64,000 bases of DNA from an uncultured Candidatus Saccharibacteria bacterium (GTDB taxonomy: Bacteria > Patescibacteriota > Minisyncoccia > Phycocordibacterales > CSBR16-119): NCBI GenBank assembly GCA_964589975.1, contig CAZPVH010000001.1:100853-164852 (forward strand). Reading direction: 5' to 3'. The position numbers and the translations under genes were made by a program. The notes below the pieces were generated by a model that was not told the DNA's origin, did no database searches, and saw only the letters and a program-made list of their open reading frames with translations. Positions 1-16,753 of this stretch are shown one piece after another; within the stretch, counting starts at the first letter, position 1; every line of letters begins with the position of its first letter.

Positions 1-639
1 GCTCGTATCCACCTTAATACTTCTGACGCTACAAAATGGAGAAATTGGAATGGCGGCAATCTAAATGCGGCAACCCCATTCTTTGTAGGCGGCACTAATC
101 CTCTACCTCACGGTTCTGGCGGTAATGTATATATGGGTAGCGAATGGTTCCCACTTACAAATGCTGACGGTTCGTTTATAGTTGACACCAACAACCTTGA
201 TTTTGCTGCAAACAGTAATGTCCCTGGTGTTGCTGTTCAGAGAATAAACGGAGCTATCCGCGTTGTACTCTACGGAAATCACACTGACCTGAGCGGTGGC
301 AAAGAGCTTGCTGCTGGATCAATCGAGCTCTCGACAAATGCCTCTGCTAGACTTCTCGGAGCTTGGGACAAGCCGAATGGATTCATTGATCCTATCTCAA
401 ATGATCCTTACACCGGTACTCGTTTGCACGATGCGACCGTGAATGACGCGGTGAACCCTATGGATTCACGAGGTACATTCAAGGCTTATATCAATCAGTA
501 CGATCCTCGATTTGATAACGTGCGAGTTATCAGCGATCTCTTCCAGTTCCACCTAGTGGCAACATCTGGATCTGATGGATTCTACGCAAGATATAACTAC
601 GATGATATGATCGAAGTTCCGTGCGTGCAGGTAGACTAG
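1..639 (+). CDS. 5'-truncated secreted protein; the frame is open from base 1 and has no start codon in the window. It carries the ~190-aa domain that recurs in CDS 4008..5867.
   Basis: The reading frame is open from position 1. The translation ARIHLNTSDATKWRNWNGG...WFPLTNADGS...VRVVLYGNH...PMDSRGTF.AYINQYD..FD...FHLV.TSGSDGFYA aligns motif by motif with aa ~220-410 of the 4008..5867 product. Confidence 0.6.
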   Translation, partial: ARIHLNTSDATKWRNWNGGNLNAATPFFVGGTNPLPHGSGGNVYMGSEWFPLTNADGSFIVDTNNLDFAANSNVPGVAVQRINGAIRVVLYGNHTDLSGGKELAAGSIELSTNASARLLGAWDKPNGFIDPISNDPYTGTRLHDATVNDAVNPMDSRGTFKAYINQYDPRFDNVRVISDLFQFHLVATSGSDGFYARYNYDDMIEVPCVQVD

Positions 640-659
640 ATAAAAGAAATAGTAAAGCA

Positions 660-686
660 AAAACCGCCCACCCGGCGGTTTTTGCT
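660..686 (+). terminator. Rho-independent terminator
   Basis: Hairpin accgcc-caccc-ggcggt followed by TTTTTGC, directly after the stop codon at 639. Confidence 0.6.
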
Positions 687-758
687 TATCCCCAAACCTA
701 ATATCTTAATCCTTTTCAAAGTTTTATAATTGTCTTGTTATAAAAAGCTATTTCTTAT

Positions 759-1754
759 ATGAAATTATCTGACAGAAGAATTATTGGCGGAGCTATCGCG
801 TTTCTATTTGTCGTCTCGATTGTGCAATCAGGAGCAATTTTGAGGATGTTCGGTGCTGCGAATGGAGGAGATTTGTCGGCAGGGGTGCTTAATATCTCAC
901 CTTTAGGCGGACGTCCTCCAGTAAGTGCCACATATACGCCGGAAGATAATGATGCAGGTGCGAATGGCATTACTTTTACCTCGCGGCAGATCGTGCGCAT
1001 CAGAGCATGCGCAGCTGGCGGCGGAGGTGGAGGCGGAGGTCGCGGCTATGAGTCTGGATCCAATATCGGCAATGGAGGAGCTGGCGGTGGCGGAGGTGGG
1101 CGTGGACAATGTGCCGATCAAGCATTCAAGATGAGACCGGGTGACACGCTCCGGTGGAACATCGGTGTAGGAGGAAATGGTGGTCAGCGCGGAGAACTCT
1201 ACGAACTCATCACGAATGGCAATATCTATCCGCAGATCAGTGCGTCCGCAACGGCTGGAGGCAATGGCGGATGGACGTATGTGAGCATCAATGGCGTTGA
1301 CGTTATACAAGTAGCCGGCGGCCTGGGTGGCCAGCCTGGGGCCAATGCCTACACGACAGGCGCGGCTGGCGGTCTGGGCGGGTCCGTGACATCGGCTGAC
1401 GCTGATTGGCATGCCGGTGAGAATGGCCATATTTCGACAGAGTTGCCCTTGTTTTCATGTGAATATGCAAAAAATAATTTGGCTGGTTACGGTGGCGCGG
1501 GTGGACACGGTGAACCAGAATACCAACCAGGTGAGAGCGGGAATGGAGGAGTGGGTGGCCATTGCTACAAGACCAATACTTATGGATACAACACTGCTTT
1601 TGGCGGCGACGGGATGGCTGCGACGCTTGGAAATGGCGGCGGTGGCGGCGGAGGTGGACTCGGTGTTTGGATGGGCGGAGAGGATGAAATCATCCAATAC
1701 GGCGGCTCTGGTGGAAGGGGAGGTGACGGTTATATAACTGTGAGCGTCGAATAA
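759..1754 (+). CDS. Glycine-rich domain protein with N-terminal membrane anchor (paralog 1 of 3)
   Basis: N-terminal hydrophobic segment IIGGAIAFLFVVSIV. Core motif RIRACAAGGGGGGGG...GGAGGGGGG.G.C....GDTLRW.IG.GG.GG...GGWTYVSINGVDV...GG.GGQ.G, and it ends in GG.GG.GGDGYITVSV. Architecture matches 1874..2839 and 2904..3887. Confidence 0.7.
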   Translation: MKLSDRRIIGGAIAFLFVVSIVQSGAILRMFGAANGGDLSAGVLNISPLGGRPPVSATYTPEDNDAGANGITFTSRQIVRIRACAAGGGGGGGGRGYESGSNIGNGGAGGGGGGRGQCADQAFKMRPGDTLRWNIGVGGNGGQRGELYELITNGNIYPQISASATAGGNGGWTYVSINGVDVIQVAGGLGGQPGANAYTTGAAGGLGGSVTSADADWHAGENGHISTELPLFSCEYAKNNLAGYGGAGGHGEPEYQPGESGNGGVGGHCYKTNTYGYNTAFGGDGMAATLGNGGGGGGGGLGVWMGGEDEIIQYGGSGGRGGDGYITVSVE

Positions 1755-1873
1755 GAAAAATGAAATACTTAATCCATACACTTCTTGCATGTAGTGGGGA
1801 GGAAAGTGATAATCAACAGAAATTTACTTTATTTATGGGTGGAAGAATTAAATTGGGTTAAAATGAGTTTAAT

Positions 1874-2839
1874 ATGAAAAAACTAAATGAAAAAAAGCTT
1901 CTCGTCGGGGCAGTTGCTTTTGTTGCTGTGCTTGGATTTATAAATGTCGTGGCAGTGTTCGCGACAAGAGACGGCATGCTGGCTCAGGTATTCAAGTTCG
2001 GCAACGTTATGACGGTTGATTCTCAGACAGCAACGTACGGTCCTGCGCAAAACGCTTTGGGACAAAACGGTATTTACTTTGATCGAGATAGAAAAGTTTC
2101 TGTTGTTGCGTGTGCGGCCGGCGGCGGCGGAGGCGGCGGTGATCATGGGTATGAAACTGGCAGTGATGATGGCGCCGGTGGCGCTGGCGGCGGCGGAGGC
2201 GGAAAAGGAATGTGCGCGTCGCGAACGCTGAAATTGCGCGCAGGCGACACCCTAAGATGGCTTGTTGGCTCGGGGGGTATGGGCGGTATCAGGGGACGCA
2301 TGATAGAAGTAATGGAGTTCGGTCCGCCGGCAGATCAACATCAGATTGCAACGAATGGAGCTCCGGGCGGCTGGACGTATGTCAGCATAAACGGTATTGA
2401 CGTAATGCAGCTTCAGGGAGGAAATGGCGGCCAGGCTGGCACGCATGCAAGCGATGTATATCTTCCCGGTTGGGGCGGGGCCGGGGGTTCATTGGATACG
2501 GTTCTTCAGCAGGCATGGGGCCACAGAGGTGAAAATGGCCAGAACAATGATCAGCAGTCAAACGGTATGGGCAGCGGAGGCTACGGCGGCAATGGCGAAG
2601 GCCAGAATGGACTCCTTACGAATAGGGGCAGCGGAGGATCATCGTGGACCTGGGGATCAAACCCTCATGGAACTACCGGCGGCAATGGCGTTACTGCCTC
2701 TGGCGGCGGAGGCGGCGGAGGCGGTGCGGGGCAATGGGAGGACTATGATTCCAACGGCGACAATTTTATAAATACATTCAGGAATTGGGGCGGCTACGGC
2801 GGTATCGGCGGAGACGGTTTTGTGACTATCACTTGGTGA
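1874..2839 (+). CDS. Glycine-rich domain protein with N-terminal membrane anchor (paralog 2 of 3)
   Basis: MKKLNEKK + TM segment + RDGMLAQVF. Same ACAAGGGGGGG / GDTLRW / GGWTYVSINGIDV / WGHRGENGQN motifs, and it ends in GGDGFVTITW. Confidence 0.7.
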   Translation: MKKLNEKKLLVGAVAFVAVLGFINVVAVFATRDGMLAQVFKFGNVMTVDSQTATYGPAQNALGQNGIYFDRDRKVSVVACAAGGGGGGGDHGYETGSDDGAGGAGGGGGGKGMCASRTLKLRAGDTLRWLVGSGGMGGIRGRMIEVMEFGPPADQHQIATNGAPGGWTYVSINGIDVMQLQGGNGGQAGTHASDVYLPGWGGAGGSLDTVLQQAWGHRGENGQNNDQQSNGMGSGGYGGNGEGQNGLLTNRGSGGSSWTWGSNPHGTTGGNGVTASGGGGGGGGAGQWEDYDSNGDNFINTFRNWGGYGGIGGDGFVTITW

Positions 2840-2903
2840 GTTTTCCATATTGCTCACGTTATTAATTAAAAAGAATTAATCGGGAACATTAAATTATATC
2901 AAC

Positions 2904-3887
2904 ATGAAAAAACTCAATAAAAAAACTCTCAAGAAGACGGTTATAGCTTTTGCTGCTGTTGTTGGGGTAGTAACTGTATTTGGAACAGTCATTTCGAGGG
3001 ATGGAATGCTGGCCCAAGTCTTTACTTCACAAACATTTCAATCGGATTTGACTTTGCAGATATCGGGCGGGGTTGAAACAAATAGCACAGGCCAAAAAGG
3101 CATAACGCTAAATAGTCAGAGGTTTGTGAGAATTATCGCTTGTTCAGCTGCTGGTGGCGGGGGCGGGGGTGATCGAGGACTTGAAGATGGGTCGAATTGG
3201 GGCTCTGGCGGCGGAGGCGGCGGAGGCGGCGGTAAAGGCAATTGTCGAACAAGAGATATGAAAGTAAGATCCGGAGATGTGCTCCGCTGGTCTGTTGGTA
3301 TGGGCGGCGCTGGTGGCACATATGGAGAGTTGAATCATTTGTTCAATCCTGATGCTCCTGGCGGTGATTACGGTATCGATTTCCCGGAAATTGATACACA
3401 TGCTACGAATGGATCCAGTGGAGGTCCAACGACAGTTGCGATCAACGGTCAGACAGTTCTATCGGTAGAAGGTGGTCATGGTGGTCAGGCGGGCACGAGC
3501 GCAAGCGGAACGTTTTCTCCTGGTTGGGGCGGTGCCGGCGGATCCCTCGATACATCTTTTCAGCAAGCATGGGGGCATAGAGGGGAAAATGGTCAGAATA
3601 CAGACGCACAGACAAATCATATGGGCAGCGGAGGCTATGGCGGAAATGGCGAAGGTCCAAATGGAATTTTGAATAACCGTGGCTACGGAGGGTCTTCATG
3701 GGGACCCGATCCATTCGGTGGCCCTGGTCTGGCCGGGGGTACCATGTCTGGCGGAGGCGGTGGCGGAGGAGGCGCTGGCAGGTGGTATGATCATCAATGG
3801 CAGACGCAGTACGAAGATACAGCGATACAGAATCGCGGCGGAATGGGCGGACCCGGTGGAAACGGTTTTATTCAGATCTATTGGTAG
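2904..3887 (+). CDS. Glycine-rich domain protein with N-terminal membrane anchor (paralog 3 of 3)
   Basis: MKKLNKK + TM segment + RDGMLAQVF. Motifs IIACSAAGGGGGG, GDVLRW, PGWGGAGGSLDT.FQQAWGHRGENGQN. The C-terminus GGNGFIQIYW is colinear with paralog 2. Confidence 0.7.
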   Translation: MKKLNKKTLKKTVIAFAAVVGVVTVFGTVISRDGMLAQVFTSQTFQSDLTLQISGGVETNSTGQKGITLNSQRFVRIIACSAAGGGGGGDRGLEDGSNWGSGGGGGGGGGKGNCRTRDMKVRSGDVLRWSVGMGGAGGTYGELNHLFNPDAPGGDYGIDFPEIDTHATNGSSGGPTTVAINGQTVLSVEGGHGGQAGTSASGTFSPGWGGAGGSLDTSFQQAWGHRGENGQNTDAQTNHMGSGGYGGNGEGPNGILNNRGYGGSSWGPDPFGGPGLAGGTMSGGGGGGGGAGRWYDHQWQTQYEDTAIQNRGGMGGPGGNGFIQIYW

Positions 3888-4007
3888 TACTCGTGTTGCA
3901 ATATTGGCTTTAAGCAATATAATATCAATATTGGAAAGGTTCCGATTTTTCGGAGTCGGAATTAGTCTAGTGCGGCTAATTTCAGATTATAAGAATTATC
4001 TATTTGC

Positions 4008-5867
4008 ATGAAAAATTTTTTGGTGAAGAGTCTGAACATTGTCACGATCTTTTCGATGGTGTTCGTTTGGAATACGGCGAATGCCGTAACGATTGATGAG
4101 CCGGTTGATACAGATATTCCTGCTTGTGAGGAGCAAACGCTTGTTAGTACTCCAGGAGAACATGGGGGCGTTGCCGTTAATCCCGAACACGGCGCTTGGA
4201 CGGCTTCTATCAGTGGGGCGGAATGGATATGGTCAGAGAATCCGATCGCCGATCCTGTTGGCGAAAGCACAGAATCTTTTACACGAGCTTTTGATATCGT
4301 AGGAACTCCGGTTGATGGAAAGCTTGAAATTGCCGCTGACAACGAATATGCGGTTTATTTGAACGGTAATCCGCTCTTTGTCGACATGAACGAAGATAAT
4401 TACAGCTCAGGCGGACAAGACGAATATGTAATTCCTGCCGCTGCCTTTGAAACTGGTGAAAATGAAATTGAGTTTGAAGTTACAAACTGGGCTCAAGAGG
4501 GCGGAACTATGGAGTCAAATCCTGCCGGACTCATGTACAAGCTCACGGTTAACTGCGCAGACGGCGGCGAAGAAGATAATTGCAATCCTGAAGAGGCAGA
4601 ATGCGAAGAAGTAGAAGATCCGACAGATCCCGAAGAAGAATCTTGTCCTATTGTCTACGCGCGCGTTCGCTTCGCAAAGGTTTCAAATGGAGCCGCAGTG
4701 AATGGCTGGAGAAATTGGGCTCCTGGCGGAGATCTTTCGAACCAGACTTTTGTTGGCGGTTCGCTGCTAGAGAATATGTATGCCGATGAAGCGTGGTTCC
4801 CGCTAACGAACCCAGACGGTTCTGTTATTGTTGACGCGGATTTAGCTCCTTACGCAGATGTTTCGGGTCTCGCTGTGGAACGCCAGAATGGTAAAGTAAG
4901 ACTTGTCCTTTATGGTAATCACAATACTGATAATAGTGAAATCGGCGGCAAGGAATTCGCCCAGGGAGTTATCGAGATCCAGGGGGCAACTTGGCAGCCT
5001 GGTATGCAGACCCCGCTTGATTGGAGTAACCTGAACACCAATCCGCGAACACATGATCCACTCATTAATGATCCAGCTTTTCCCATGGATTCACGTGGAT
5101 CATTCAATGGGTATATTAACCAATATGACTACAGGTTCGACCGTATGAGGACATGGACTCCGACTAAAGTTGAATTCCACCTGGTTGTAACGACAGGATC
5201 GGACGGATTCTATGCATCTTATGATATAAATGATGACTGCGATATTAATCAAGAGGATCCTGAAGAGCCCGTGTGTGAAATGGATTGCGAAGAAGACCCT
5301 GTTTGCGAAGAAGAGCCCTGCGACCAGGATCCTCAGTGTGAGGTAGACTGTAGTGAGCTTCCTCCTAATCCTTCTTGTGAAGAAACACAGACTTGTGAAA
5401 ATACAGAAGATAATGATCCCGAAGATCAAGACGAAGAGGAAGAAGAATCGGGTCGGAGTTTTGTTGGGGGACGCGGTTCATCTAATAACGGGGGTGGTAG
5501 CGTTTTAGGGGCCACTGACGGAGAGGTGCTTGGCGCGTGTACCCCTTTTACCGAATATCATAGAAAAGGAGATTCCGGAGGAGAGATTGCTCGCATCCAG
5601 GAATTCTTGAATGAAGAAATGGACGCAGGGCTTATCGTTGATGGTATATATGGCTCGACAACAGCAAAAGCCGTGGGCGATTTCCAGCAGAAATATTTTG
5701 AGCAGATAATTACGCCATGGGTGCCTCCATTTCTACCGCGAGTTACTCACCGATGGTACAAATCTACTCGCATGATGGCGAATGAACTTATCGGTTGTCC
5801 GGAGACAGAAGTTTATCTGGAGGACCCTGGAATCATGTATAAGGTTAAGTGGACCCCTACGGCATAA
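4008..5867 (+). CDS. Secreted acidic Cys/Glu-rich protein with a shared ~190-aa domain and a C-terminal peptidoglycan-binding (PG_binding_1-like) domain
   Basis: Signal-peptide-like N-terminus (MKNFLVKSLNIVTIFSMVFVWNTANA). Central domain is paralogous to CDS 1..639. Acidic CxxxEExC spacers (DCEEDPVCEEEPCDQDPQCEVDC). C-terminal GDSGGEIARIQEFLNEEMDAGLIVDGIYGSTTAKAVGDFQQKY fits the PG-binding helical repeat pattern. Confidence 0.65.
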   Translation: MKNFLVKSLNIVTIFSMVFVWNTANAVTIDEPVDTDIPACEEQTLVSTPGEHGGVAVNPEHGAWTASISGAEWIWSENPIADPVGESTESFTRAFDIVGTPVDGKLEIAADNEYAVYLNGNPLFVDMNEDNYSSGGQDEYVIPAAAFETGENEIEFEVTNWAQEGGTMESNPAGLMYKLTVNCADGGEEDNCNPEEAECEEVEDPTDPEEESCPIVYARVRFAKVSNGAAVNGWRNWAPGGDLSNQTFVGGSLLENMYADEAWFPLTNPDGSVIVDADLAPYADVSGLAVERQNGKVRLVLYGNHNTDNSEIGGKEFAQGVIEIQGATWQPGMQTPLDWSNLNTNPRTHDPLINDPAFPMDSRGSFNGYINQYDYRFDRMRTWTPTKVEFHLVVTTGSDGFYASYDINDDCDINQEDPEEPVCEMDCEEDPVCEEEPCDQDPQCEVDCSELPPNPSCEETQTCENTEDNDPEDQDEEEEESGRSFVGGRGSSNNGGGSVLGATDGEVLGACTPFTEYHRKGDSGGEIARIQEFLNEEMDAGLIVDGIYGSTTAKAVGDFQQKYFEQIITPWVPPFLPRVTHRWYKSTRMMANELIGCPETEVYLEDPGIMYKVKWTPTA

Positions 5868-5951: not shown

Positions 5952-7784
5952 ATGGCTCCGATCTACGATCCTAATGATATTGAGAAAAAATGGCAATCTG
6001 TATGGGAAAAAGAGGGTATTTATCGTACCCATGATGATTTTTCAAAACCAAAGAAATATGTCCTAGACATGTACCCATACCCGTCTGGAGAGGGTCTTCA
6101 TGTTGGTCATCCAAAAGGATACATTGCAACCGATGTCTATTCTCGGTTTTCGCGCATGAATGGTTTCAGTGTCTTGCACCCGATGGGTTGGGACGCTTTC
6201 GGATTGCCGGCAGAGCAATTTGCGCTCAAAAATAAAATACATCCCAAAATTGCCGTTGCAAAAAACATTTCTCGCTATAAAGAGCAGCTTCAGGTTATTG
6301 GACTTGACTATGATTGGTCGAGAGAGATCAACACCACAGATCCGGAATACTACAAATGGACGCAATGGTGTTTTGTAAAAATGTTTGAACGCGGACTTGT
6401 TTACCAATCCCATGCCCCAATCAACTGGTGTCCTTCTTGCAAGACAGGACTTGCGAACGAAGATTTGGAAGATGGCAAATGTGAGCGTTGTGGTTCAGAA
6501 ATAGAACAGAAGCCTCTTCCGCAATGGGTGATTAAAATAACAGATTACAGAGACCGACTTGTTGAAGACCTGTCGCTTTTGCCGAAATGGCCGGAGTATG
6601 TAAAAACTAGTCAGAAAAACTGGCTGGAAAACCTTCATGACTGGGTTTTTGCTCGTCAGCGCTATTGGGGAGAGCCGATCCCACTCATTCATTGTGAAAA
6701 ATGTGGTACTGTCACAGTCCCAGAAAAAGATTTGCCGGTAAGACTACCTGAAGTAGAGAGTTATGAGCCAACTGGAACAGGTGAGTCGCCGCTTGCTGGG
6801 ATAACAGACTGGGTTAATACGACTTGTCCAAAGTGTGGCGAGGCCGCAAAGAGGGAAACCAACACTATGCCGCAGTGGGCCGGATCTTCCTGGTACTACT
6901 TGCGCTACATGGATCCGAATAATGCGGGGGTATTAGTCGACAAAGACAAAGAAAAATATTGGAATAGCGTTGATGTCTACGTCGGCGGCATGGAACACGC
7001 TACCCGCCACCTTATCTACGCCCGTTTTTGGCACAAATTCCTTTATGACATCGGTACTGTTACAACTAAAGAGCCATTCGAAGAATTGCATACTGTTGGG
7101 CTTATTCAGGCGGCGGACGGGCGCAAGATGTCAAAACGATGGGGAAATGTTGTGAATCCTGACGAGATGGTCGGGCGTTTTGGCGCTGACGCTTTCAGAC
7201 TTTATGAGATGTTTATGGGCCCTTTTGAACAGGCTGTGGCCTGGAATACGGATGGGGTTGTTGGTACAAGGAGATTTTTAGAGAAGGTTTGGCGCGGCGA
7301 GGGGTATTTCGGCGATACTAGCGAAGAGCTAGAGAGTCTTTTGCACAAGACTATAAAAAAAATAGGAGAAGATATTCAGAGTTTTAAGTTCAACACTTGT
7401 GTCTCGACCATGATGGTACTTGCAAACAAGCTCGATGATGAAAAATCAGTTTCGAAAGAAGACTATAAAAAATTTTTGCAGATATTAGCGCCATTTGCTC
7501 CGCACATGACTGAGGAATTGTGGCGCAACCTTGGGGACACAGCCTCGATCCATCTTTCTTCTTGGCCCAAATATGATGAGTCAAAAATCAAGGAAGAAAA
7601 GATTAAAATTGTTATCCAGATTAATGGTAAAGTTCGTGACGAGATTGAGGTTCATGCTGGTGCGAGAGAGGAAGAAGTGAAAACTCTCGTTTTAGCTCGC
7701 GAAAAAGTCGTCGAAAAGCTTGCTGGAGAGGAGGTAAAGAAGATAATTTATGTTGAGGGTCGGTTAATAAATATCGTTATTTAG
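5952..7784 (+). CDS. leuS: Leucyl-tRNA synthetase lacking the CP1 editing domain and the leucyl-specific insertion
   Basis: Class I HIGH-region motif (LHVGH), LeuRS signature PMGWDAFGLPAE, and KMSKR. KNWL is joined directly to DWVFARQRYWGEPIP. In E. coli LeuRS about 190 aa of CP1 sit between those two points. Total length is 610 aa versus ~860. Confidence 0.85.
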   Translation: MAPIYDPNDIEKKWQSVWEKEGIYRTHDDFSKPKKYVLDMYPYPSGEGLHVGHPKGYIATDVYSRFSRMNGFSVLHPMGWDAFGLPAEQFALKNKIHPKIAVAKNISRYKEQLQVIGLDYDWSREINTTDPEYYKWTQWCFVKMFERGLVYQSHAPINWCPSCKTGLANEDLEDGKCERCGSEIEQKPLPQWVIKITDYRDRLVEDLSLLPKWPEYVKTSQKNWLENLHDWVFARQRYWGEPIPLIHCEKCGTVTVPEKDLPVRLPEVESYEPTGTGESPLAGITDWVNTTCPKCGEAAKRETNTMPQWAGSSWYYLRYMDPNNAGVLVDKDKEKYWNSVDVYVGGMEHATRHLIYARFWHKFLYDIGTVTTKEPFEELHTVGLIQAADGRKMSKRWGNVVNPDEMVGRFGADAFRLYEMFMGPFEQAVAWNTDGVVGTRRFLEKVWRGEGYFGDTSEELESLLHKTIKKIGEDIQSFKFNTCVSTMMVLANKLDDEKSVSKEDYKKFLQILAPFAPHMTEELWRNLGDTASIHLSSWPKYDESKIKEEKIKIVIQINGKVRDEIEVHAGAREEEVKTLVLAREKVVEKLAGEEVKKIIYVEGRLINIVI

Positions 7785-7785
7785 C

Positions 7786-9501
7786 ATGGTTAATCGCATC
7801 ATCGGTCTACTTAATCGTGAGTTCAAGAATATAAACCAAGCGGCTATAATTCTCGGAACTTTTACGCTACTTTCGCAGATTTTGGCGATGCTTCGCGATA
7901 GGGCATTCGCGCATTTTTTGGGTGCGTCTTCAACTCTTGATATTTACTATGCGTCATTTAAAATTCCGGATATTATTTTTGTTTCGGTCGCTTCACTTGC
8001 GTCGATTACCGTGCTCCTACCTTTTTTGGTGGACAAAATTGGTCTAAAAGAAGATGGTGAACTAAACGGAGGTAGTGAGTCAGCGCGAAAACTTTTAAAT
8101 GACGTTTTTACAATCTTTATATCCATGATGATTATAGTTTCTGGTATCGCTTTTATCTTTGCGCCAGAACTCGCGAAGTTTGTTGCCCCAGGTTTTAACC
8201 CACTCGAGCTCAAAGAGCTCGTTTCTATAACGCGAATCATGCTGTTGTCTCCGATACTTCTCGGGCTCTCAAATCTTGTCGGGTCTGTAACCCAAATGTT
8301 CAAAAAATTCTTCGTTTTTGCCCTTTCGCCGGTCTTTTACAATATCGGAATCATACTAGGTGTCGTCGTACTATATCCTAGTTTTGGTCTTACAGGACTT
8401 GCTATTGGGGTAGTTTTTGGCGCGCTACTGCATCTTTTGATCCAGTTTCCGGTCCTGGCCAGGCACCACTTCTTGCCAAAGTTGTCTTTCTCGATTGACT
8501 GGGGTCAGATCAAAAAAATATCTATGCTTTCTCTTCCGCGGACGCTCGGACTCGCTCTCAACAGTCTGGCTTTGGTGGTCATAACTGCGCTTGCATCAAA
8601 AATGGGCGAGGGGGCCATCTCAATATTTCAATTTTCTTTAAATTTTCAAAATGTACCGCTTGGAATTATCGGAGTCTCTTATTCAGTGGCTGCTTTTCCA
8701 ACGCTGGCCCGGTATTTTTCAGGATCAAATATGAAAGATTTCGTCGCCTACATTGCCGTGGCTGCGCGACAGATAATTTTCTGGTGCATGCCGATTATGT
8801 TTATCTTTATCGTTCTCCGAGCTCAAATTGTTCGCGTTATTCTCGGGACCGGTCTCTTTTCCTGGGACGATACGCGTCTGACGGCTGCTGGACTTGCGCT
8901 TTTCTCGCTCTCTATTGTTGGTCAAAGCCTCATACTTCTCTTTACTCGCGGATATTATGCGGCGGGGAACACCCGGCGGCCGCTTTATATAAATTTAATT
9001 TCTGCTGGAGCAACTATTATTTTGGCTATGGTCCTTGTAAACGTTTTCCACACGAACCCAAGTTTTCAGTACTTCATTGAGGCGCTTCTGCGAATTGAGA
9101 ATATCCCTCATACGGAAATAGTCATGCTGCCCCTCGCATACTCGATCGGGTCGATTACTAACATACTTCTTCTCTGGGGATTTTTCCGCCGCGATTTTAA
9201 GATTAAAGACGCATTTCTCTTCCGATCTTTCGCTCAGAGCTTTGCCGGCGCGTTTTTCATAGGCTACGTTACCTACATTTCACTAAATATTTTTGATGAA
9301 GTCTTCAACATAGATACTTTTTGGGGAATCTTGGGCCAAGGAGTGTCTTCGGGGCTCATCGGTATAGTTTGCGGCATAATTGTGCTTAAGCTGTTGAAAA
9401 ACCGGGAGCTAGAAATCATATTACAGAGCTTAAAATCACGAAAACTTTTCAAAACAGAAGTCATTTCTTCAGGGGGGGACGAAATGCAAAGTGGTTCCTA
9501 G
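7786..9501 (+). CDS. murJ: Lipid II flippase MurJ/MviN family
   Basis: Polytopic protein of 571 aa. N-terminus ...NQAAIILGTFTLLSQILAMLRDRAFAHFLGASSTLDIYYASFKIPD is typical of MurJ. Confidence 0.8.
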   Translation: MVNRIIGLLNREFKNINQAAIILGTFTLLSQILAMLRDRAFAHFLGASSTLDIYYASFKIPDIIFVSVASLASITVLLPFLVDKIGLKEDGELNGGSESARKLLNDVFTIFISMMIIVSGIAFIFAPELAKFVAPGFNPLELKELVSITRIMLLSPILLGLSNLVGSVTQMFKKFFVFALSPVFYNIGIILGVVVLYPSFGLTGLAIGVVFGALLHLLIQFPVLARHHFLPKLSFSIDWGQIKKISMLSLPRTLGLALNSLALVVITALASKMGEGAISIFQFSLNFQNVPLGIIGVSYSVAAFPTLARYFSGSNMKDFVAYIAVAARQIIFWCMPIMFIFIVLRAQIVRVILGTGLFSWDDTRLTAAGLALFSLSIVGQSLILLFTRGYYAAGNTRRPLYINLISAGATIILAMVLVNVFHTNPSFQYFIEALLRIENIPHTEIVMLPLAYSIGSITNILLLWGFFRRDFKIKDAFLFRSFAQSFAGAFFIGYVTYISLNIFDEVFNIDTFWGILGQGVSSGLIGIVCGIIVLKLLKNRELEIILQSLKSRKLFKTEVISSGGDEMQSGS

Positions 9502-9575: not shown

Positions 9576-9616
9576 ACATGATAGTTCCCGGAATACGGTT
9601 GAGAATTCATTTGCGA

Positions 9617-12600
9617 ATGAAGAAGCTTTTTTCGCTTGTTCTGCTTTTTGCCTTAACGTTTTCTCCATTTACCAATCCTGTTTTTGCGGCCCCCGGCGTT
9701 CCAGAAATACTTAGCCATCAGGGACGACTTCTTGATTCCTCGGGGAATTTACTGGGCGGATCTAGTGGAACAAATTATTGCTTTAGATTCTCTTTTTACG
9801 ACGATGCAACTGTGGGTGGCGGCGATGTGAAGTTGTGGCCATTAGGTACGCCGTCAACTATGACTGCAAGTGTTGTTTCAGGGGTATTTAATGTCGGAAT
9901 CGGCGATACTGGCGCTGGCGGGGACGTGCTTGATTTTGATTTTAATTCGACGGATACTGTTTATTTAAACACCGAGGTTGCAGCGCAGATTAGCGGATCA
10001 TGCTCGGGTGTTACTTTTGAGAATCTTTCTCCTCGTCAGAGAATAAATTCTTCGGGTTTTGCCATCAACGCTTCAACCGTAGGCGGCTTTACGGCTTCTC
10101 AGTCGGCCGATGGCAATGACGTTGTGGCCCTCACTTCAGATGATCTCATTTTGGGTGGAACAAATCCTGATTTTGGTGCAACGGGAACAAACACTTTGAC
10201 TCTCCAGGGCAATGGCGCGACAGGTAATATAAATTTCTTTTCCGCATCAAATTCGCTTTCTTCGGGGGGAAACCTTGATGTGGCAGGAACCCTTCAATCC
10301 GGATCGTCAAATGTCTCACTGACGCTTGCGACAGGCTTCGTCGATGCGGACGCGCTCACACTTACCGGTGCAGCCGATGGCGGAACCGGAACCTCTTCCG
10401 GTTCGGGACTTATAGCTCGAAATGACGGCATAGGACTTCTTCAGGGCTGCAGCGACGGGCAGATTCTTAAGTGGATTGAAGCTACTGATACGTGGGATTG
10501 CGCTGCGGATAATAGTGGTGGCGGACTCACAGATTCGGATTATGGAGACATTGTCGTTTCTGGTGGAGGCGGCGTTTGGACTATCGATAACGGCGTCGTA
10601 ACCTCGGCTAAAATTGCAGACAATACTATCGCTAACGCCGACCTTGCCGCAGGAACATTCTCTAGTATCACTGGCACTGGCGCTCTCGGAGCTGGCTCCA
10701 TTACATCAGGATTTGGCGCTATTGATGTGGGAGCAGACAACATTACTACAACAGGTATAGTTTCAACTGATACGCTGACGCTTACTAACACCGGCACGTT
10801 GAATGGGCTTGATGTGATTGATGCTGCGTCGGAATCTACGATCGAAGGTGCCATCGATACACTAGCCAACCTTACGAGTATCCAAGGAAATTCTTTCACG
10901 GTTTCTGGTGCCACGACAGTCTCAGGTACCAACACGGGCGACCAGACTTCGGTTACCGGCAACGCAGGCACCGTCACCTTTGCTGATGCCGGCGGTGACA
11001 CAACAACATTCGTTGCTCTTGGAACTTCCGCCACAGGATCGCTTGCGCCAGCAACCGATGCAGGACTTACTTACAATGCCACCACAAACGCTCTTACAGC
11101 AACAACCTTCGTCGGAGGTCTTACTGGTAACGTAACTGGTAATGCCGATACGGCGACAGCACTCGCAGCCAATCCATCTGATTGCGGAGCAAATGCTTTT
11201 GCCACAACTATCGCTGCAAACGGAAATCTGACCTGCGCAAGTATCACCGATGCGGATGTGCCGAATGATATAACGATCGATTTGGCTGCGCTCGCCTCGA
11301 CCGTGACCGTTGTTGACTCAACAGACGCTACCTCTTTCATTGGCATCTACGATTCAGCGACTGGATCATTGGCGCCAAAAACTGACGGAGCTCTAACTTA
11401 TAATGCTTCGACGGGAGTACTTTCGGCAACGACTTTTGTTGGCGCGCTTACCGGAGCTGCCACAGATCTAAATTGTACGGACTGCATTGGTCCTACAGAA
11501 ATAACAGATCTTACTCTTGGAACCGATACGGCAGGAAACTATGTCGCAACCGTAACAGGCGGAGCCGGCCTCACGGGATCTGGCGCTGCCGAAGGTTCAA
11601 CCCCGACACTAGCAGTTGTCTCCGGTAACGGAGGTATTATCGCTAACGCTGACGACATCACGCTTACCGTTGCGCCGTCAGCGAATGCATTATCTTCTAC
11701 GACTTCAACAGGATCCGGTCTTGAGATTCTTTCGACCGGCATCGCGCTTCTACAAGGCTGCAGTGATGGAAATATTCTCAAGTGGGTAGAAGCGACCGAC
11801 ACATGGGACTGTTCAGTCGATAATGCCGGTGGAGGATTGTCAGATGCTGATTATGGCGATATTACGGTATCCTCATCGGGTTCAGTTTGGACTATCGATA
11901 ACGGCGTCGTAACCTCGGCTAAAATTGCAGACAATACTATCGCTAACGCCGACCTTGCCGCAGGAACATTCTCTAGTATCACTGGCACTGGCGCTCTCGG
12001 AGCTGGCTCCATTACATCAGGATTTGGCGCTATTGATGTGGGAGCAGACAACATTACTACAACAGGTATAGTTTCAACTGATACGCTGACGCTTACTAAC
12101 ACCGGCACGTTGAATGGGCTTGATGTGATTGATGCGACCGGCGAAGCAACTCTCGAGGGCGCGCTCGATATTGCTGGAGATATTGACGGGACTGGTCTTA
12201 CGGCGGTGGACCTCGATGAAGCTGCCGTAGAGGCCGAACTCGAAGCAGTGCTTGATCTTGCTGATATGCAGGGCGCGGTCACAGATGCTCAGGTTCCTGA
12301 CAATATAACGGTTGACTCTGCTACCACAGCGGGAACAGTTACTTTTGCAGACGCCGGCGGAGATACAACGACATTCGTCGCACTCGGAACCTCTGCAACG
12401 GGTTCACTTGCGCCTGCAACTGATGCAGGTCTTACATATAACGCGACGACGAATGCGCTTACGGCAACAACATTTGTTGGAGGACTTACAGGAAATGTTA
12501 CTGGTAATGCCGATACGGCCACAGCTCTCGCGGCGAACCCAACAGACTGCGGAGCGAATACTTTTGCGACAACTATTGCCGCTAACGGAAATCTTACATG

Positions 12601-15600
12601 TGCCTCGATTTTGGATGCAGATGTACCAAACAACATCACAATAGACCTTGCAACCCTTGCTTCGACCGTAACTGTTGTAGACGGAACAGATTCGACCTCG
12701 TTCGTTGCAATATTTGATTCTGCAACTGGATCACTTGCTGCCAAGACTGATGGCGGTCTTCTTTATGATGCTTCGACAGGCACTTTGACCGCAACAGTTC
12801 TCTCGACAGACACGCTTACGCTCACTGGTACTGGAACAATCAACGGACTTGACGTGATAGACGCGACTTCGGAATCGACAATCGAAGCCGCGCTCGATAC
12901 GCTTTCGAACGTTACGACTGTCGGTACGCTCAACGCAGGCTCGATCACTTCCGGATTCGGTGCGATCGATGTTGGCACTGACAGTATTACCACCACTGGA
13001 ACTATCGGTTCAACCGGTAGTGCAAAGTTTACCGGAGACACGGCTACTCTATCGGGAGCAATTGCTGCAAATGGTGGAATCACTTTCGATAACTCTACAG
13101 ATACTTTGGGTGCTTTCACGGCGGGTGGAACTATCGATATGAATACTCAAATTCTCGCCGGTAGCACAGGTAGAATCGATTACACAAATTTTGATGTTGG
13201 CGCCACAGGAAATACGGATATCGGCGGGACAATTACAGCTGGTTCAGGAAATGAGGCTATTACTTTGTCTACGGGTAAAATAGATGCTGACGCAATAAGT
13301 CTCGTAACTGCAACAGATGGCCTTACTGGAACATCTTCAGCTTCGGGGCTTGCCACGTATTCTGACACATTGTCGCTTCTCCAAGGGTGCAGCGACGGCC
13401 AGGTTTTAGCTTGGGTGGAGTCGACTGATACGTGGGACTGTACGACAGTTAGCGCCGGTTCTGGAGACATAACTTCCGTTGGTGATGTTGCTTCGGGGGC
13501 CGCGTTTGACGGTACACAAGGCACAACGCTTACGTTTAATGACACCGATGGAGACAAGACGTTTAAATATGATACGACAAACAATTGGTTCGAGCTCAAT
13601 GATAATATCGCCATAGGCTCTGCTGGTGTTCTTATGACAGATGACGGTGACGGTGCGCTAACGCTTCTTGGTATGGGAGATGGTTCTGACGAAGATTTGA
13701 CGATAAATCTTGACGACACCTCGAATACGGTAGTGGTCTCTTCTTCAACAGGTGTCACTAATATGACATTTACATCGATCGGTGCGACGTTTGGAAGTGA
13801 CGTTACTTTAAATACTCAAAGCGACTTACGTTTGGCCGATTCAGACAGCTCGAATTGGGTGGCATTCCAGGCGCCGGCAACCGTTGGATCAAACATTACT
13901 TGGACACTTCCATCTGCTGACGCAGAAGGTTGTTTTAAATCAAATGGCTCCGGAACAGTTTCAATAGGATCTTGTGGAGATACTAAAATACAGACATATA
14001 CCGCTGATGATACGTGGACTAAACCGTCTGACGCTCTTTTGGTTATTGTCCAAGGGTGGGGCGGAGGCGGAGGCGGAGGCGGAGGAACCGGCGGCTCAAC
14101 TGCTGCTACTCGTTCTGGCGGAGGCGGAGGTGGAGGCGGCGCATATAATCAAAAAATAATTTCAGCTAGTGATCTTGCTAGTAGTGTGAGCGTTGAAGTG
14201 GGTGACGGTGGAACAGCTGGTACAGCAGGATCTAGTGGCGTCGGTGGTGTGGGAGGTTCGGGCGGAAGTACTTGTTTTAGCTCATCAGCAGCATGTGGTG
14301 GAACTAATTACTTCATTACTCGTGCTGGCGGAGGAGGTTCTGGATCTGGTACGGCAGGAAACGGCGGAGGCGGAGGCGGAGGCCTCGGTTCTGCCGGTGC
14401 TGTCGGTTCGGGCGCTACGGGAGGCTCTGGCGGTACACCAGCCGGCGCCTCAGATGCTTCTACGGATGGATTTGCGGGAGGCGGAGGAGGAAACTCAGGT
14501 ACTTCTGCTGGAGCGTCTGCCGGTAATTTGGCTGCTTGGGGCGGAGGTGGCGGGGGTGCTTCTACCACAGCGGGAGGCGCGGTTTCTGGTGAAGGAGGAA
14601 GTGCAATTCGCGGTGCCGGAGCCGGCGGCGGAGGTGGAAGTAATCCATCTGGCTGTGCTTCTTTCCGGGGAGGAGGAGACGGAGGAGCTAGCTCTTCCGG
14701 AGCATTGGGTGGCGGTGGAACAGGAGCGCTTGCGCAAGGAATAAATGGTGGTGCTGGAGCTGATAGCACTATATCGAGCCAAAATGGCGGTTCCGGCGGC
14801 GGCGGTGCGGCAAGTCATTGTTCGGGTACCGGGGGAACAGGGGGTGCTGGAGGTATTCCGGGTGGCGGAGGTGGCGGAGGCGGCGCTGGTGCGACCACAA
14901 CAGGTGGTGCCGGAGGAGTTGGTGCTCGCGGTGAATTGCAAGTCTGGACACTTCGGGGGGCGGGTGCCGACCTTGCTGAAATATATGCTACAAACGAGAT
15001 AGATATTGGTCCTGGCGATCTTGTTTCTATTGATCCAGAAATGAATGCCGGAGTCAAAAAGACTAACAAAAAATATGATCACATGGCGATTGGAGTAGTT
15101 TCAACAGAGCCGGGACTAACGATCGGTAATATGGATGAGGATCCGAATGCGTTCCAGCCAGTGCTTATTGCGCTTGCTGGGCGCGTGCCAATGAAGGTTA
15201 ATCTTGAGAATGGCCCGATTGTAAAAGGAGATCTTCTTACCCCGTCATCTGTTCCGGGTGTTGCCATGAAGGCGACAAAGGCGGGTATCGTCGTGGGTCA
15301 ATCAATGACTGACTACAACGGCGATATGCCAACGCAGATTGAATTGGGCTACGGCTATGTTGTTGCCTTTATTAAGAATGCATACAGTAATGGTTCAAAG
15401 CTTGCTGATATCTTGCCTGGACTTACGACCGCCGAAGAAGATGATATTCCGGAAGGAGATATATCTCAAACTTATCCAATAAATAGACAAGCGCTCGAGT
15501 ATTTCTTGGCTCACCGCGCGGAGCTTGGTCCGGAAACAGAACTTTCTGAAATCTATACAGATCGCCTAAGCGCCGGTCTTGAAGTCATCACTCCGACCTT

Positions 15601-16753
15601 GATTGCCGACTCTGTTGAAACTCATACCATATCATCGTCCCATGAGACCGGTGAGGTCCGTGTAGTGCTTGGCGAGACTGGTAAATTTATAATTGGTGGT
15701 GAGGTTGTTTCACTAGAAGACGATGAAGAGTCAGAATCATCTGCAAGTGTTCAAATTGATGCAAGCGGGAATGCTTACTTTGCCGGTACAGTTACGGCAA
15801 AGAATGTCGTAGCTGAAACTATTTCAGGACTTGAGGTATATACGAACAAAATTTCATCGCTCTCTGAGGCGGTTGAGACCGGATCAGCGAACAGCTCCGC
15901 GGATTTTTTGGAGCTAAATGGCAGAATTGGAACACTTGAGGAGCAGGCTGCTAACATTGCCGAGAACACGGCTGATACCCTAGAAGAAATTGAAACGGTA
16001 ATCGATGGTATTCTGGCTGGCGGTTACGCCATTAGTTTGTCAGATGTTGACATATCAGGCGCACTTAATGTAACCGAGCTTTCTACTTTGAGTGGAGGGC
16101 TTGCGGTCAATAGTATATCAGCCGTTGCGTCAGTTGACGGTCCCGAAGCGATGCTGTCTCTTATGAGCGACACAGAGTTTTTTGGTCGCCCGTACTTCAA
16201 TGCCGATACTGCAGGTTTTGCGGTGATTCTGGCTGGGGCGCGATCGGTAGAAATTTCATTTACAGAACCATACTTGACCCAACCGGTCGTGAGCGCAGAC
16301 ATATCTCTTGAACAGCAGGATGAAGAAGAGGATAATTTTGATCTAGAAGAGTCATTTTTTGCCGCGGGTATCGACTATGTTGTGACGCGTAAAAGTCCGG
16401 GGGGATTCACCATAGTTCTAAATCATCCTGCTCCTATGGATCTCAAGTTCTCTTGGATTGCCCTCGCTGTCAAAGATGCCCTAACACTTGTAAGCGAGCC
16501 ATCGGTACTAGATACCACATCTGATTTGGAAGAACCCGAACCCATGTCTGACCCAGACAATCAAGAACCTGAAGAATTATTGCCAGAAAATGAGACGGTA
16601 ATTCCTCAGGATGATGAATACGTGCCAGAAGAACTACCACCGCCAACCACTGAAACCATATCCGAAGGTGGGGAAAACCTGATTGAGGTGTCAGAACCCT
16701 CTACAGAACCTTCGGATTCAGGAGAAAGTATTATATCGGAACCACCGCTTTAA
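9617..16753 (+). CDS. Giant secreted repeat protein (2379 aa) with a signal peptide, three ~437-aa Thr/Gly/Ala-rich repeats, a C-terminal glycine-rich module and an acidic Pro/Glu tail
   Basis: ORF runs from 9578, with the likely start at MKKLFSLVLLFALTFSPFTNPVFA (9617). Repeat unit LLQGCSDGQILKW.EATDTWDC...SAKIADNTIANADLAAGTF... occurs three times. The segment at nt ~14040-14950 (LLVIVQGWGGGGGGGGG...) repeats the Gly-rich module of 759..3887. Coiled-coil-like and acidic PEEL tail. Confidence 0.8.
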   Translation: MKKLFSLVLLFALTFSPFTNPVFAAPGVPEILSHQGRLLDSSGNLLGGSSGTNYCFRFSFYDDATVGGGDVKLWPLGTPSTMTASVVSGVFNVGIGDTGAGGDVLDFDFNSTDTVYLNTEVAAQISGSCSGVTFENLSPRQRINSSGFAINASTVGGFTASQSADGNDVVALTSDDLILGGTNPDFGATGTNTLTLQGNGATGNINFFSASNSLSSGGNLDVAGTLQSGSSNVSLTLATGFVDADALTLTGAADGGTGTSSGSGLIARNDGIGLLQGCSDGQILKWIEATDTWDCAADNSGGGLTDSDYGDIVVSGGGGVWTIDNGVVTSAKIADNTIANADLAAGTFSSITGTGALGAGSITSGFGAIDVGADNITTTGIVSTDTLTLTNTGTLNGLDVIDAASESTIEGAIDTLANLTSIQGNSFTVSGATTVSGTNTGDQTSVTGNAGTVTFADAGGDTTTFVALGTSATGSLAPATDAGLTYNATTNALTATTFVGGLTGNVTGNADTATALAANPSDCGANAFATTIAANGNLTCASITDADVPNDITIDLAALASTVTVVDSTDATSFIGIYDSATGSLAPKTDGALTYNASTGVLSATTFVGALTGAATDLNCTDCIGPTEITDLTLGTDTAGNYVATVTGGAGLTGSGAAEGSTPTLAVVSGNGGIIANADDITLTVAPSANALSSTTSTGSGLEILSTGIALLQGCSDGNILKWVEATDTWDCSVDNAGGGLSDADYGDITVSSSGSVWTIDNGVVTSAKIADNTIANADLAAGTFSSITGTGALGAGSITSGFGAIDVGADNITTTGIVSTDTLTLTNTGTLNGLDVIDATGEATLEGALDIAGDIDGTGLTAVDLDEAAVEAELEAVLDLADMQGAVTDAQVPDNITVDSATTAGTVTFADAGGDTTTFVALGTSATGSLAPATDAGLTYNATTNALTATTFVGGLTGNVTGNADTATALAANPTDCGANTFATTIAANGNLTCASILDADVPNNITIDLATLASTVTVVDGTDSTSFVAIFDSATGSLAAKTDGGLLYDASTGTLTATVLSTDTLTLTGTGTINGLDVIDATSESTIEAALDTLSNVTTVGTLNAGSITSGFGAIDVGTDSITTTGTIGSTGSAKFTGDTATLSGAIAANGGITFDNSTDTLGAFTAGGTIDMNTQILAGSTGRIDYTNFDVGATGNTDIGGTITAGSGNEAITLSTGKIDADAISLVTATDGLTGTSSASGLATYSDTLSLLQGCSDGQVLAWVESTDTWDCTTVSAGSGDITSVGDVASGAAFDGTQGTTLTFNDTDGDKTFKYDTTNNWFELNDNIAIGSAGVLMTDDGDGALTLLGMGDGSDEDLTINLDDTSNTVVVSSSTGVTNMTFTSIGATFGSDVTLNTQSDLRLADSDSSNWVAFQAPATVGSNITWTLPSADAEGCFKSNGSGTVSIGSCGDTKIQTYTADDTWTKPSDALLVIVQGWGGGGGGGGGTGGSTAATRSGGGGGGGGAYNQKIISASDLASSVSVEVGDGGTAGTAGSSGVGGVGGSGGSTCFSSSAACGGTNYFITRAGGGGSGSGTAGNGGGGGGGLGSAGAVGSGATGGSGGTPAGASDASTDGFAGGGGGNSGTSAGASAGNLAAWGGGGGGASTTAGGAVSGEGGSAIRGAGAGGGGGSNPSGCASFRGGGDGGASSSGALGGGGTGALAQGINGGAGADSTISSQNGGSGGGGAASHCSGTGGTGGAGGIPGGGGGGGGAGATTTGGAGGVGARGELQVWTLRGAGADLAEIYATNEIDIGPGDLVSIDPEMNAGVKKTNKKYDHMAIGVVSTEPGLTIGNMDEDPNAFQPVLIALAGRVPMKVNLENGPIVKGDLLTPSSVPGVAMKATKAGIVVGQSMTDYNGDMPTQIELGYGYVVAFIKNAYSNGSKLADILPGLTTAEEDDIPEGDISQTYPINRQALEYFLAHRAELGPETELSEIYTDRLSAGLEVITPTLIADSVETHTISSSHETGEVRVVLGETGKFIIGGEVVSLEDDEESESSASVQIDASGNAYFAGTVTAKNVVAETISGLEVYTNKISSLSEAVETGSANSSADFLELNGRIGTLEEQAANIAENTADTLEEIETVIDGILAGGYAISLSDVDISGALNVTELSTLSGGLAVNSISAVASVDGPEAMLSLMSDTEFFGRPYFNADTAGFAVILAGARSVEISFTEPYLTQPVVSADISLEQQDEEEDNFDLEESFFAAGIDYVVTRKSPGGFTIVLNHPAPMDLKFSWIALAVKDALTLVSEPSVLDTTSDLEEPEPMSDPDNQEPEELLPENETVIPQDDEYVPEELPPPTTETISEGGENLIEVSEPSTEPSDSGESIISEPPL
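10574..10824 (+). repeat. 251-bp exact intragenic direct repeat (copy 1; copy 2 at 11885..12135)
   Basis: gtttggactatcgataacggcgtcgtaacc...cttgatgtgattgatgc is identical in both copies, offset by 1311 bp. The flanking repeat sequence is only ~80% identical at nt level, with mostly synonymous changes. Confidence 0.85.
11885..12135 (+). repeat. 251-bp exact intragenic direct repeat (copy 2)
   Basis: Identical to 10574..10824. Confidence 0.85.

Follow-up and report, generated by a model that had tools for sequence, protein, structure and literature searches.

A variable-copy array of glycine-rich proteins with hydrophobic N-termini on a Patescibacteria chromosome: members of the Gly_rich_2 superfamily and candidate extracytoplasmic binding modules

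What are the three consecutive glycine-rich genes found on the chromosome of an uncultured Candidatus Saccharibacteria bacterium, and what could their products do outside the cytoplasm? The genes lie near the start of a 64,000-nucleotide (nt) stretch of DNA, hereafter the window (contig CAZPVH010000001.1, positions 100,853 to 164,852), and will be referred to as paralogs 1, 2 and 3, or collectively as the triplet (Table 1). A sequence-only reading had interpreted them as a multigene family of glycine-rich modules, recurring in a giant protein encoded further downstream, and had mentioned a possible link to the 'glycine-rich domain' of phage tail-fibre-like proteins. Our data show that the triplet domain is a member of the Gly_rich_2 superfamily (PF21722), with a TNF-like beta-sandwich plus polyglycine 'brush' fold. 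On the basis of this fold and homology, the triplet proteins are proposed to act as extracytoplasmic ligand-binding or adhesion modules, an interpretation to which we assign a probability of roughly 0.6. To our knowledge, host recognition and attachment among Patescibacteria (candidate phyla radiation, CPR) are largely unknown beyond type IV pili.

Comparison of the triplet proteins by composition-adjusted BLASTP yielded 46% identity over 228 amino acids (aa) between paralogs 1 and 2 (E 1e-32) and 55% over 301 aa between paralogs 2 and 3 (E 2e-48). The similarity therefore stays significant after correction for composition, and the alignment of paralogs 2 and 3 proved colinear to the last residue, as had been claimed. 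The three genes are consecutive, lie on the same strand and share one architecture. All motifs previously quoted were found in the triplet, the GGWTYVSING of paralogs 1 and 2 reading GGPTTVAINGQTV in paralog 3. Each gene is preceded by its own AT-rich spacer of 64-120 base pairs (bp), with a guanine plus cytosine (GC) content of 25-31% versus 49-52% in the genes. A scan for promoters and terminators in these regions revealed nothing above shuffled controls, save a perfect GC-rich palindrome at 655-687 with 14-bp stems (AAGCAAAAACCGCC...GGCGGTTTTTGCTT). It is located between the upstream gene and paralog 1, and is likely a bidirectional terminator behind the former.

The comparison of paralog 1 with its 93%-identical ortholog in the related genome L087 (gene 8001-8996) gave nonsynonymous and synonymous divergences (dN and dS) of 0.039 and 0.452, respectively, i.e. 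a dN/dS ratio of 0.086. Because of this ratio, and because 88 cluster representatives were matched elsewhere by the family profile (see below), the triplet genes are judged to be real, and they are under purifying selection. The family alignment displayed 74 invariant columns, which include C, W, N, H, K, D and E residues; the invariant non-glycine positions are C80, C114, K120, D125, W129, N173, H217 and W288 in paralog 2 numbering.

The extent of the family was evaluated by an exhaustive profile search with HMMER, based on hidden Markov models (HMMs), among 1.84 billion cluster representatives. It returned 88 representatives at E <= 1e-3, 17 of them at E <= 1e-30, whereas a word-indexed search had found nine relatives only. 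About 16 of the 88 stand alone, measure ~290-350 aa and begin with the hydrophobic N-terminus of the triplet. Some 35 others are secreted proteins of ~800-1190 aa, in which a triplet-type domain at ~500-870 is directly followed by a canonical PF21722 domain. The remainder are distant (P0184, P0192 and P0194, for example) and in these the matched region is itself PF21722, at 18-58 bits. Homology of the triplet family to accepted PF21722 members was thereby found by profile search, and the anticipated link to the phage tail-fibre domain is supported. The motif order is colinear as well: an N-terminal strand running into glycines (h-h-h-h-x-G-x-GGGGGG), a second Gly run, a strand with 'VG.GG.GG', GGxGG turns and a terminal strand 'G.G.v.i.W' ('G.dG.v.i.W' in PF21722). 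The triplet differs from PF21722 by its additional hydrophobic helix, its Cys pair and the motifs GD.LRW, WTYVSING and W.H.GENG. Their distributions differ too, PF21722 occurring in bacterial proteins as well as in those of giant viruses and in phage tail fibres, while the triplet subfamily is rare, with only the stand-alone members counted above among the 1.84 billion. The PF21722 model itself gave no match at E <= 1 for the paralogs or for the glycine-rich segment of the giant protein (gathering score 24.3 bits), and scans for the back-translated motif TYVS[IV]NG[IV][DE] in IMG/VR and in JGI metagenome contigs produced chance matches only and no family member. As a separate observation, several long relatives (P0133, P0134, P0142, P0152 and P0172) have a conserved N-terminus after the signal peptide, 'NWTPPtxxPpxxNxPxPxNxG...Q.K.G', and repeated 'G(D/Q)xLxWxxxxxxW' motifs before their tandem brush domains; they form an unannotated fibre-like secreted family.

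An AlphaFold2 model of paralog 2, built from a 10-member alignment, reached a mean predicted local distance difference test score (pLDDT) of 81 and a predicted TM-score (pTM) of 0.74. It comprises about a dozen beta-strands, and the Gly runs between them were confidently placed, with no regular DSSP assignment. When this model was compared with the PDB by Foldseek, the best match was the fibre of cyanophage Pam3 (7ypx_A, E 9e-4, probability 1.00). The other 21 of the top 22 matches were glycine-rich-domain chains of ALK and LTK (E 5e-3 to 0.24), and those past the top 22 had E >= 1. In BFVD, 169 matches were obtained at E <= 1e-3, the best at 3e-11; these were tail fibre, minor tail and glycine-rich domain-containing proteins of tailed phages and giant viruses. 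The prediction of one paralog, which had been suggested as a check, thus yielded a confident model with specific fold matches, and a multigene family of structured glycine-rich modules is supported.

Details of the glycine-rich region may be proposed with more reserve. A polyglycine-II helix geometry is suggested for the Gly runs by their high pLDDT in the DSSP-unassigned segments, the sole observation favouring such packing. Cys80 (nt 2111-2113) and Cys114 (nt 2213-2215) of paralog 2, both invariant in the family, flank the first pair of Gly runs and would be well placed to form a disulfide staple of the Gly lattice; paralog 1 has four Cys (84, 118, 234 and 269), with a second pair. A map of 18 members showed that the conserved Gly runs and strands alternate with variable segments (residues 142-158, 193-198, 209-215, 223-232, 256-263 and 290-303), in or beside which insertions cluster. 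Phage adhesins are laid out in this manner too. The idea that GGC/GGA codon runs would expose these genes to slippage was not borne out: the Gly runs mix GGC, GGA, GGT and GGG codons, and run lengths vary little among homologs. Tandem Repeats Finder detected 1.9-3.6 copies of 6-12-nt units in the triplet genes, as well as imperfect 3-nt GGC/GCG runs (about 8 copies, 80-83% match), and the longest homopolymer was 7 nt.

Related genomes were found to differ in both copy number and sequence at this locus. At the syntenic site one copy was present in L002, at least two in L089, three in the window and four in L087 (353, 331, 318 and 334 aa). Positions 1-628 and 653-1735 of the window are 85% and 90% identical, respectively, to L087 (6015-8977); in L087, the two blocks are separated by an additional 1.25 kb that holds a fourth paralog. 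High identity stops at ~nt 1735, just ahead of the spacer between paralogs 1 and 2, and to the right of this point the window is at most 70% identical to L087, the genes for MurJ and leucyl-tRNA synthetase (LeuRS) included. At the protein level, identity to L087 amounts to 93% for paralog 1, 60% for MurJ and 58% for LeuRS; paralogs 2 and 3 share 55% with each other, but only 43-49% with whichever L087 copy is chosen. L089 shows 92% identity to window nt 1216-1944, a match that reaches 70 nt into paralog 2 and gives way to 51% amino-acid identity beyond it. This distribution suggests birth-and-death evolution of the array, together with a fairly recent exchange of the left-hand part between lineages that had diverged. 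For the junction of paralogs 1 and 2, an assembly chimera was considered and rejected, as the Logan contig L001 matches window positions 1598-5839 at 100%; this contig may share its sample with the window, and the junction is best called 'not an obvious' chimera. L089 independently joins a paralog-1-like gene to a paralog-2-like N-terminus.

The same module had been said to recur in the giant protein. A glycine-rich block does exist where it had been reported, but kinship with the triplet is limited to superfamily and fold. Searching the paralogs against the giant protein by BLASTP gave no match after composition correction, and the triplet HMM gave none with null2 on; the score of 110 bits obtained without null2 is compositional, HMMER bias terms being very large in these comparisons. 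The reciprocal search, with an HMM of the giant module against the paralogs, returned weak, out-of-register matches only. Because BLASTP and composition-corrected HMM comparison find nothing, the block cannot be considered the same module, and it is devoid of the Cys pair, GD.LRW and WTYVSING motifs of the triplet subfamily. By contrast with these single-sequence searches, hhalign aligned the two families over their first ~100 columns with 92.5% probability (E 4.8e-7) and in the expected register (strand-GGGGGG, second Gly run, strand-VG.GG.GG, next strand pair). Our own profile-profile run scored 49.0 versus 27.9 for the reversed profile and 21.5 +/- 2.9 (maximum 29) in 40 block shuffles, about 9 standard deviations over the shuffled controls. 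A hhalign comparison with an enlarged triplet family reached 95% probability (E 3e-8), a value that is partly circular because distant canonical members were included.

The block of the giant protein is a canonical Gly_rich_2/brush domain, of another subfamily than the triplet within the same superfamily and fold. It has 116 homologs, many of them annotated as PF21722, which align end to end and in which the domain is C-terminal. Searched against PDB sequences, its profile matched Bxb1 gp33 (E 9.2e-12) and, less strongly, the Pam3 fibre (E 0.035); in PHROGs it matched phrog_863 (tail; E 5.6e-13). Its AlphaFold2 model was confident (pLDDT 84, pTM 0.86), and Foldseek related it to Bxb1 gp33 (9d93_Q; E 3e-8, target-normalised TM-score 0.64), to the Pam3 fibre (7yfw; 3.7e-3) and to ALK (0.37). 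The confident model and the specific fold matches speak against mere low complexity in the block.

The N-termini of the triplet proteins were analysed for hints of their cellular location. Each paralog has a single N-terminal hydrophobic peak (residues ~9-30, Kyte-Doolittle maxima 2.06-2.63 with a 19-residue window), no second peak being found in any of the three by this procedure. The stretch spans 20-22 residues, versus ~13-15 residues for the h-regions in the signal peptides of the giant protein and of a 619-aa neighbour. Since it is longer than the h-regions of these clear signal peptides, a signal anchor is favoured, and the helix would then insert in an N-in/C-out orientation. An extracytoplasmic placement of the domain appears probable because of the single hydrophobic peak, the invariant Cys pair and the secreted or peptidoglycan-binding neighbours. 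The transmembrane segment claimed earlier accordingly holds as one hydrophobic stretch per protein, and anchoring, like surface exposure, is plausible rather than proven. Other export or attachment signals were looked for and rejected in the paralogs: there is no Cys near the N-terminus for a lipoprotein signal, no G-F-T-L-x-E motif for a type IV pilin, and no C-terminal sorting signal, as the proteins terminate in their last beta-strand.

The proposed mechanism would be as follows. A short cytoplasmic N-terminus would be followed by the hydrophobic helix, acting as a signal anchor or, less likely, as a long cleaved signal peptide, and then by an extracytoplasmic domain of ~270 residues composed of the TNF-like beta-sandwich and the polyglycine 'brush'. 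The conserved runs of 6-9 glycines would form extended helices packed in a rigid lattice, probably stapled by the disulfide, and the variable, indel-rich loops between them would build a ligand-binding tip. By analogy with phages, each of the three divergent copies may have its own envelope target, be it glycan, lipid or protein; these targets would most likely belong to another cell, or else to the bacterium's own wall. The array would grow, shrink and swap segments between lineages. In the giant secreted protein, a long fibre carries a canonical domain of the Gly_rich_2 superfamily.

Several observations weigh against this interpretation or against parts of it. Ala37 followed by Gln38 is invariant in the family and could be a signal-peptidase site; cleavage there would leave the paralogs secreted and not anchored. 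The linker between helix and domain has only ~18 residues in the AlphaFold2 model, so that a membrane-tethered domain may not clear the wall or an S-layer. No match was found for any of the three paralogs in Pfam, NCBIfam, PHROGs or PADLOC. Searches of PDB sequences with the small alignment or the family profile yielded poly-Gly linker artefacts only and no solved structure. Finally, comparison with solved structures by Foldseek gave low TM-scores (0.20-0.36) and high root-mean-square deviations.

The short tether is also one of the arguments for a different function, in which the domains would attach, from the membrane side, to the cell's own envelope (peptidoglycan, wall polymer or S-layer) and so link membrane and wall as tethers or spacers. 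Such an envelope-structural role would fit the constant neighbours of the array, which are DUF642 or peptidoglycan-binding secreted proteins on its flanks and MurJ next to it. However, the divergence of the paralogs (43-55% identity), their indel-rich loops and the turnover of copies are more typical of a variable external target, and the family is very narrowly distributed; we regard this alternative as possible but unlikely. The contrary view, that the external target is a host, is an extension of the binding-module interpretation. Cultivated Patescibacteria, as presented in one report, are epibiotic (10.1101/2024.11.25.624915), and for this reason the surface of a host cell would be the most attractive target. 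The array could then be a host-recognition cassette, each membrane-displayed brush paralog working in the manner of a phage receptor-binding protein and recognising a different host envelope structure. If so, host range would be set or shifted as copies are gained, lost and exchanged between lineages (1 to 4 copies per genome, and a mosaic segment of 85-90% identity in genomes otherwise ~67% identical). This specific proposal is advanced tentatively, being in our opinion rather doubtful as it stands.

Could the genes instead be of phage origin, as remnants of a prophage or tailocin or as recently captured tail-fibre genes? Viral proteins dominate the fold matches in the libraries searched, and the giant module matches a tail PHROG. 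Nevertheless, the window is bacterial chromosome, with genes for LeuRS, MurJ, TopA, SerRS, LysRS, CysRS, RsmH and a penicillin-binding protein, and family members elsewhere adjoin housekeeping genes (L10/L12, ribonucleotide reductase, SecDF, FtsW) and not phage genes. No phage genes were seen in the window or in four other contexts, which hold only ribosomal proteins, ribonucleotide reductase, SecDF, FtsW, LeuRS and MurJ; instead of a virion tail or baseplate cluster, a housekeeping context was found in the window and in L002, L004, L005, L087 and L089. Synteny of the site is moreover kept between genomes that share only ~60% identity in MurJ and LeuRS, the paralogs begin with a hydrophobic signal for the membrane or for secretion and not with a fibre-attachment domain, they matched no PHROG, and the IMG/VR motif scan returned no family member. 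Phage derivation of this kind is thus quite improbable. The likeness to phage receptor-binding tips, along with the quick, arms-race-like evolution of the array, could also be explained by an anti-phage function, with receptor mimics, decoys or superinfection exclusion copying a phage receptor-binding domain; the absence of any PADLOC match and of a defence-gene neighbourhood makes this a highly improbable explanation. As for purely compositional similarity among unrelated or disordered glycine-rich proteins, the vanishing of HMM and BLAST matches to the giant protein under composition correction and the very large HMMER bias would be expected from low-complexity noise. This explanation is nevertheless largely refuted, and hardly credible for the triplet itself, by the E values of 1e-32 to 2e-48 retained after adjustment, by the profile-profile score far above block shuffles, by confident models with specific fold matches, and by the invariant non-glycine residues C80, C114, W129, N173, H217 and W288. 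The 74 invariant columns and the low dN/dS ratio are likewise at variance with disordered or merely structural glycine-rich low complexity.

The binding-module interpretation can be further appraised by comparison with known systems. The human ALK receptor binds its ligand through a glycine-lattice fold. The TG/GRD regions of ALK and LTK (7LS0, 7N00, 7NX1, 7MZY, 7LIR and others) resemble the paralogs as domains attached by a single pass, this attachment, extracellular placement and ligand binding being presumed for the paralogs. The structural matches are weak, with TM-scores of 0.20-0.29 besides the E values given above, and the sequence searches gave no link. ALK, a type I receptor, has a kinase on the cytoplasmic side, whereas the paralogs have ~8 residues before the helix, a presumably opposite topology and no kinase; they end at the glycine-rich domain and hence are not type I receptor tyrosine kinases.

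Among phage proteins, Pam3 gp24 (7YPX/7YFW) consists of an N-terminal helix, a TNF-like sandwich and a glycine-rich domain whose conserved Gly motifs are stacked as a lattice, and its less conserved distal tip has been proposed as the receptor site (PMC9608196). The paralogs show the same order of parts, from helix to sandwich, glycine-rich domain and variable tip. However, the helix of gp24 forms a trimeric bundle on the baseplate while that of the paralogs is hydrophobic and fits a membrane anchor or secretion signal, gp24 requires the chaperone gp25 for which no such gene was seen here, and the TM-score between the Pam3 fibre and the paralog model is only 0.29-0.36. The 'polyglycine-rich' or 'brush' domains of Bxb1 and other siphophages are regarded as anti-receptors (PMC13243192, PMC13243795). 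Bxb1 gp33, the 'tail wing brush' (9D93), is matched by the giant module in both sequence profile and fold; it is unmatched by the paralogs, in sequence or among the fold matches listed, and belongs to a virion where the genes described here belong to a bacterial chromosome. In gp38 of Salmonella phage S16 and of T-even phages, a polyglycine-II sandwich has Gly motifs alternating with hypervariable segments (PMC9608196, PMC13243192). The resemblance to the triplet is one of organisation only: gp38 was not recovered in our searches, and that of S16 has a beta-helix instead of a TNF-like sandwich (PMC9608196). The fold and the superfamily are therefore already known from PF21722, Pam3 gp24, Bxb1 gp33 and ALK/LTK. 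For a subfamily with a hydrophobic anchor and a Cys pair, arranged as a variable-copy chromosomal array in Patescibacteria and undetected by domain libraries, no description was found, and the literature on PF21722/Gly_rich_2 and on glycine-rich surface proteins of Patescibacteria yielded nothing relevant.

The array belongs to a conserved gene order, in which DUF642 and peptidoglycan-binding secreted proteins are followed by the array, mostly a PG_binding_1 protein, LeuRS and MurJ. The coordinates of its borders and of the other features mentioned are collected in Table 1.

Table 1. Location of the triplet, its borders and the giant protein in the window
Feature	Position	Strand	Description
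Left border of the array	133..639	+	Product 94.5% identical to residues 503-667 of the 672-aa DUF642 protein of L087
Spacer upstream of paralog 1	640..758		31% GC; contains palindrome 655-687
Paralog 1	759..1754	+	331 aa; hydrophobic helix at residues ~9-27 (nt 783-839)
Paralog 1, putative ectodomain	residues ~54-331		TNF-like/polyglycine
Spacer between paralogs 1 and 2	1755..1873		29% GC
Paralog 2	1874..2839	+	321 aa; hydrophobic core at residues 10-28 (nt 1901-1957)
Paralog 2, parts of the model			Helix 6-32; low-confidence linker 33-50; putative ectodomain 50-321 (nt 2021-2836)
Spacer between paralogs 2 and 3	2840..2903		25% GC
Paralog 3	2904..3887	+	327 aa; hydrophobic core at residues 12-30 (nt 2937-2993)
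Right border of the array	4008..5867	+	Secreted 619-aa protein with C-terminal peptidoglycan-binding domain
Giant secreted fibre-like protein	9617..16753	+	Longest open reading frame (ORF) from 9578; ATG at 9617 gives a canonical signal peptide
Gly_rich_2/'brush' domain of the giant protein	13985..14959	+	aa 1470-1794 counted from nt 9578
C-terminal ~500-aa module of the giant protein	14963..16450	+	

The middle part of the 619-aa protein and the product of ORF 133-639 share 50% identity (common 'WFPLTN.DGS.IVD' region), so that paralogous secreted proteins stand on both sides of the array. Past the giant gene, the segment 17357-23529 (+) encodes more secreted proteins; their domains include fn3/Big/dockerin-like ones and Ig-like ones (Big_13/Big_9), and among them is a carbohydrate esterase (SASA, sialate O-acetylesterase-like) that also bears a cadherin-like domain. 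Taken as a whole, these ~23 kb resemble an island of surface-protein genes. Within the giant ORF, direct repeats ~1.3 kb apart were observed (10574-10859/11885-12170, 95% identical; 10964-11263/12329-12628, 78%), corresponding to a duplicated fibre unit of ~440 aa with a recurring 'LLQGCSDGxILKW...TDTWDC' motif. The ~500-aa module at the C-terminal side of its brush domain occurs in >150 proteins and has no Pfam or PDB match. The few carriers with a named source are nearly all Patescibacteria (Saccharibacteria, Parcubacteria, Microgenomates, Woesebacteria, Gottesmanbacteria and others), and its N-terminal partners differ widely (SH3_3, H_lectin, Ig-like, Peptidase_G2, Gly_rich_2). It could be a conserved module that anchors CPR surface proteins to the cell surface or acts as their auto-chaperone.

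The neighbouring LeuRS gene (5952-7784, +) is unusual as well. Its product has only 610 aa and is devoid of the PF13603 editing (CP1) domain, whereas the syntenic LeuRS of L087 has 989 aa with the editing domain and an inserted NUDIX domain, and most Patescibacteria LeuRS relatives match over ~800 aa. Its domain content suggests that the LeuRS of the window may be naturally editing-deficient. The nearest LeuRS relatives are from Parcubacteria/Paceibacteria-type Patescibacteria, at no more than 66% identity.

The polyglycine 'brush' fold, so far drawn from phage receptor-binding tips and from ALK/LTK, is thus encoded by an ultra-small bacterium in two forms, a variable-copy array of small proteins with hydrophobic N-termini and a single domain on a giant fibre. 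As the small form is missed by Pfam, NCBIfam and PHROGs, its members would be annotated as 'hypothetical'. The putative ectodomains are expressible candidates for binding studies on CPR host recognition, and the locus may offer a natural case of one binding scaffold used by both cells and viruses.

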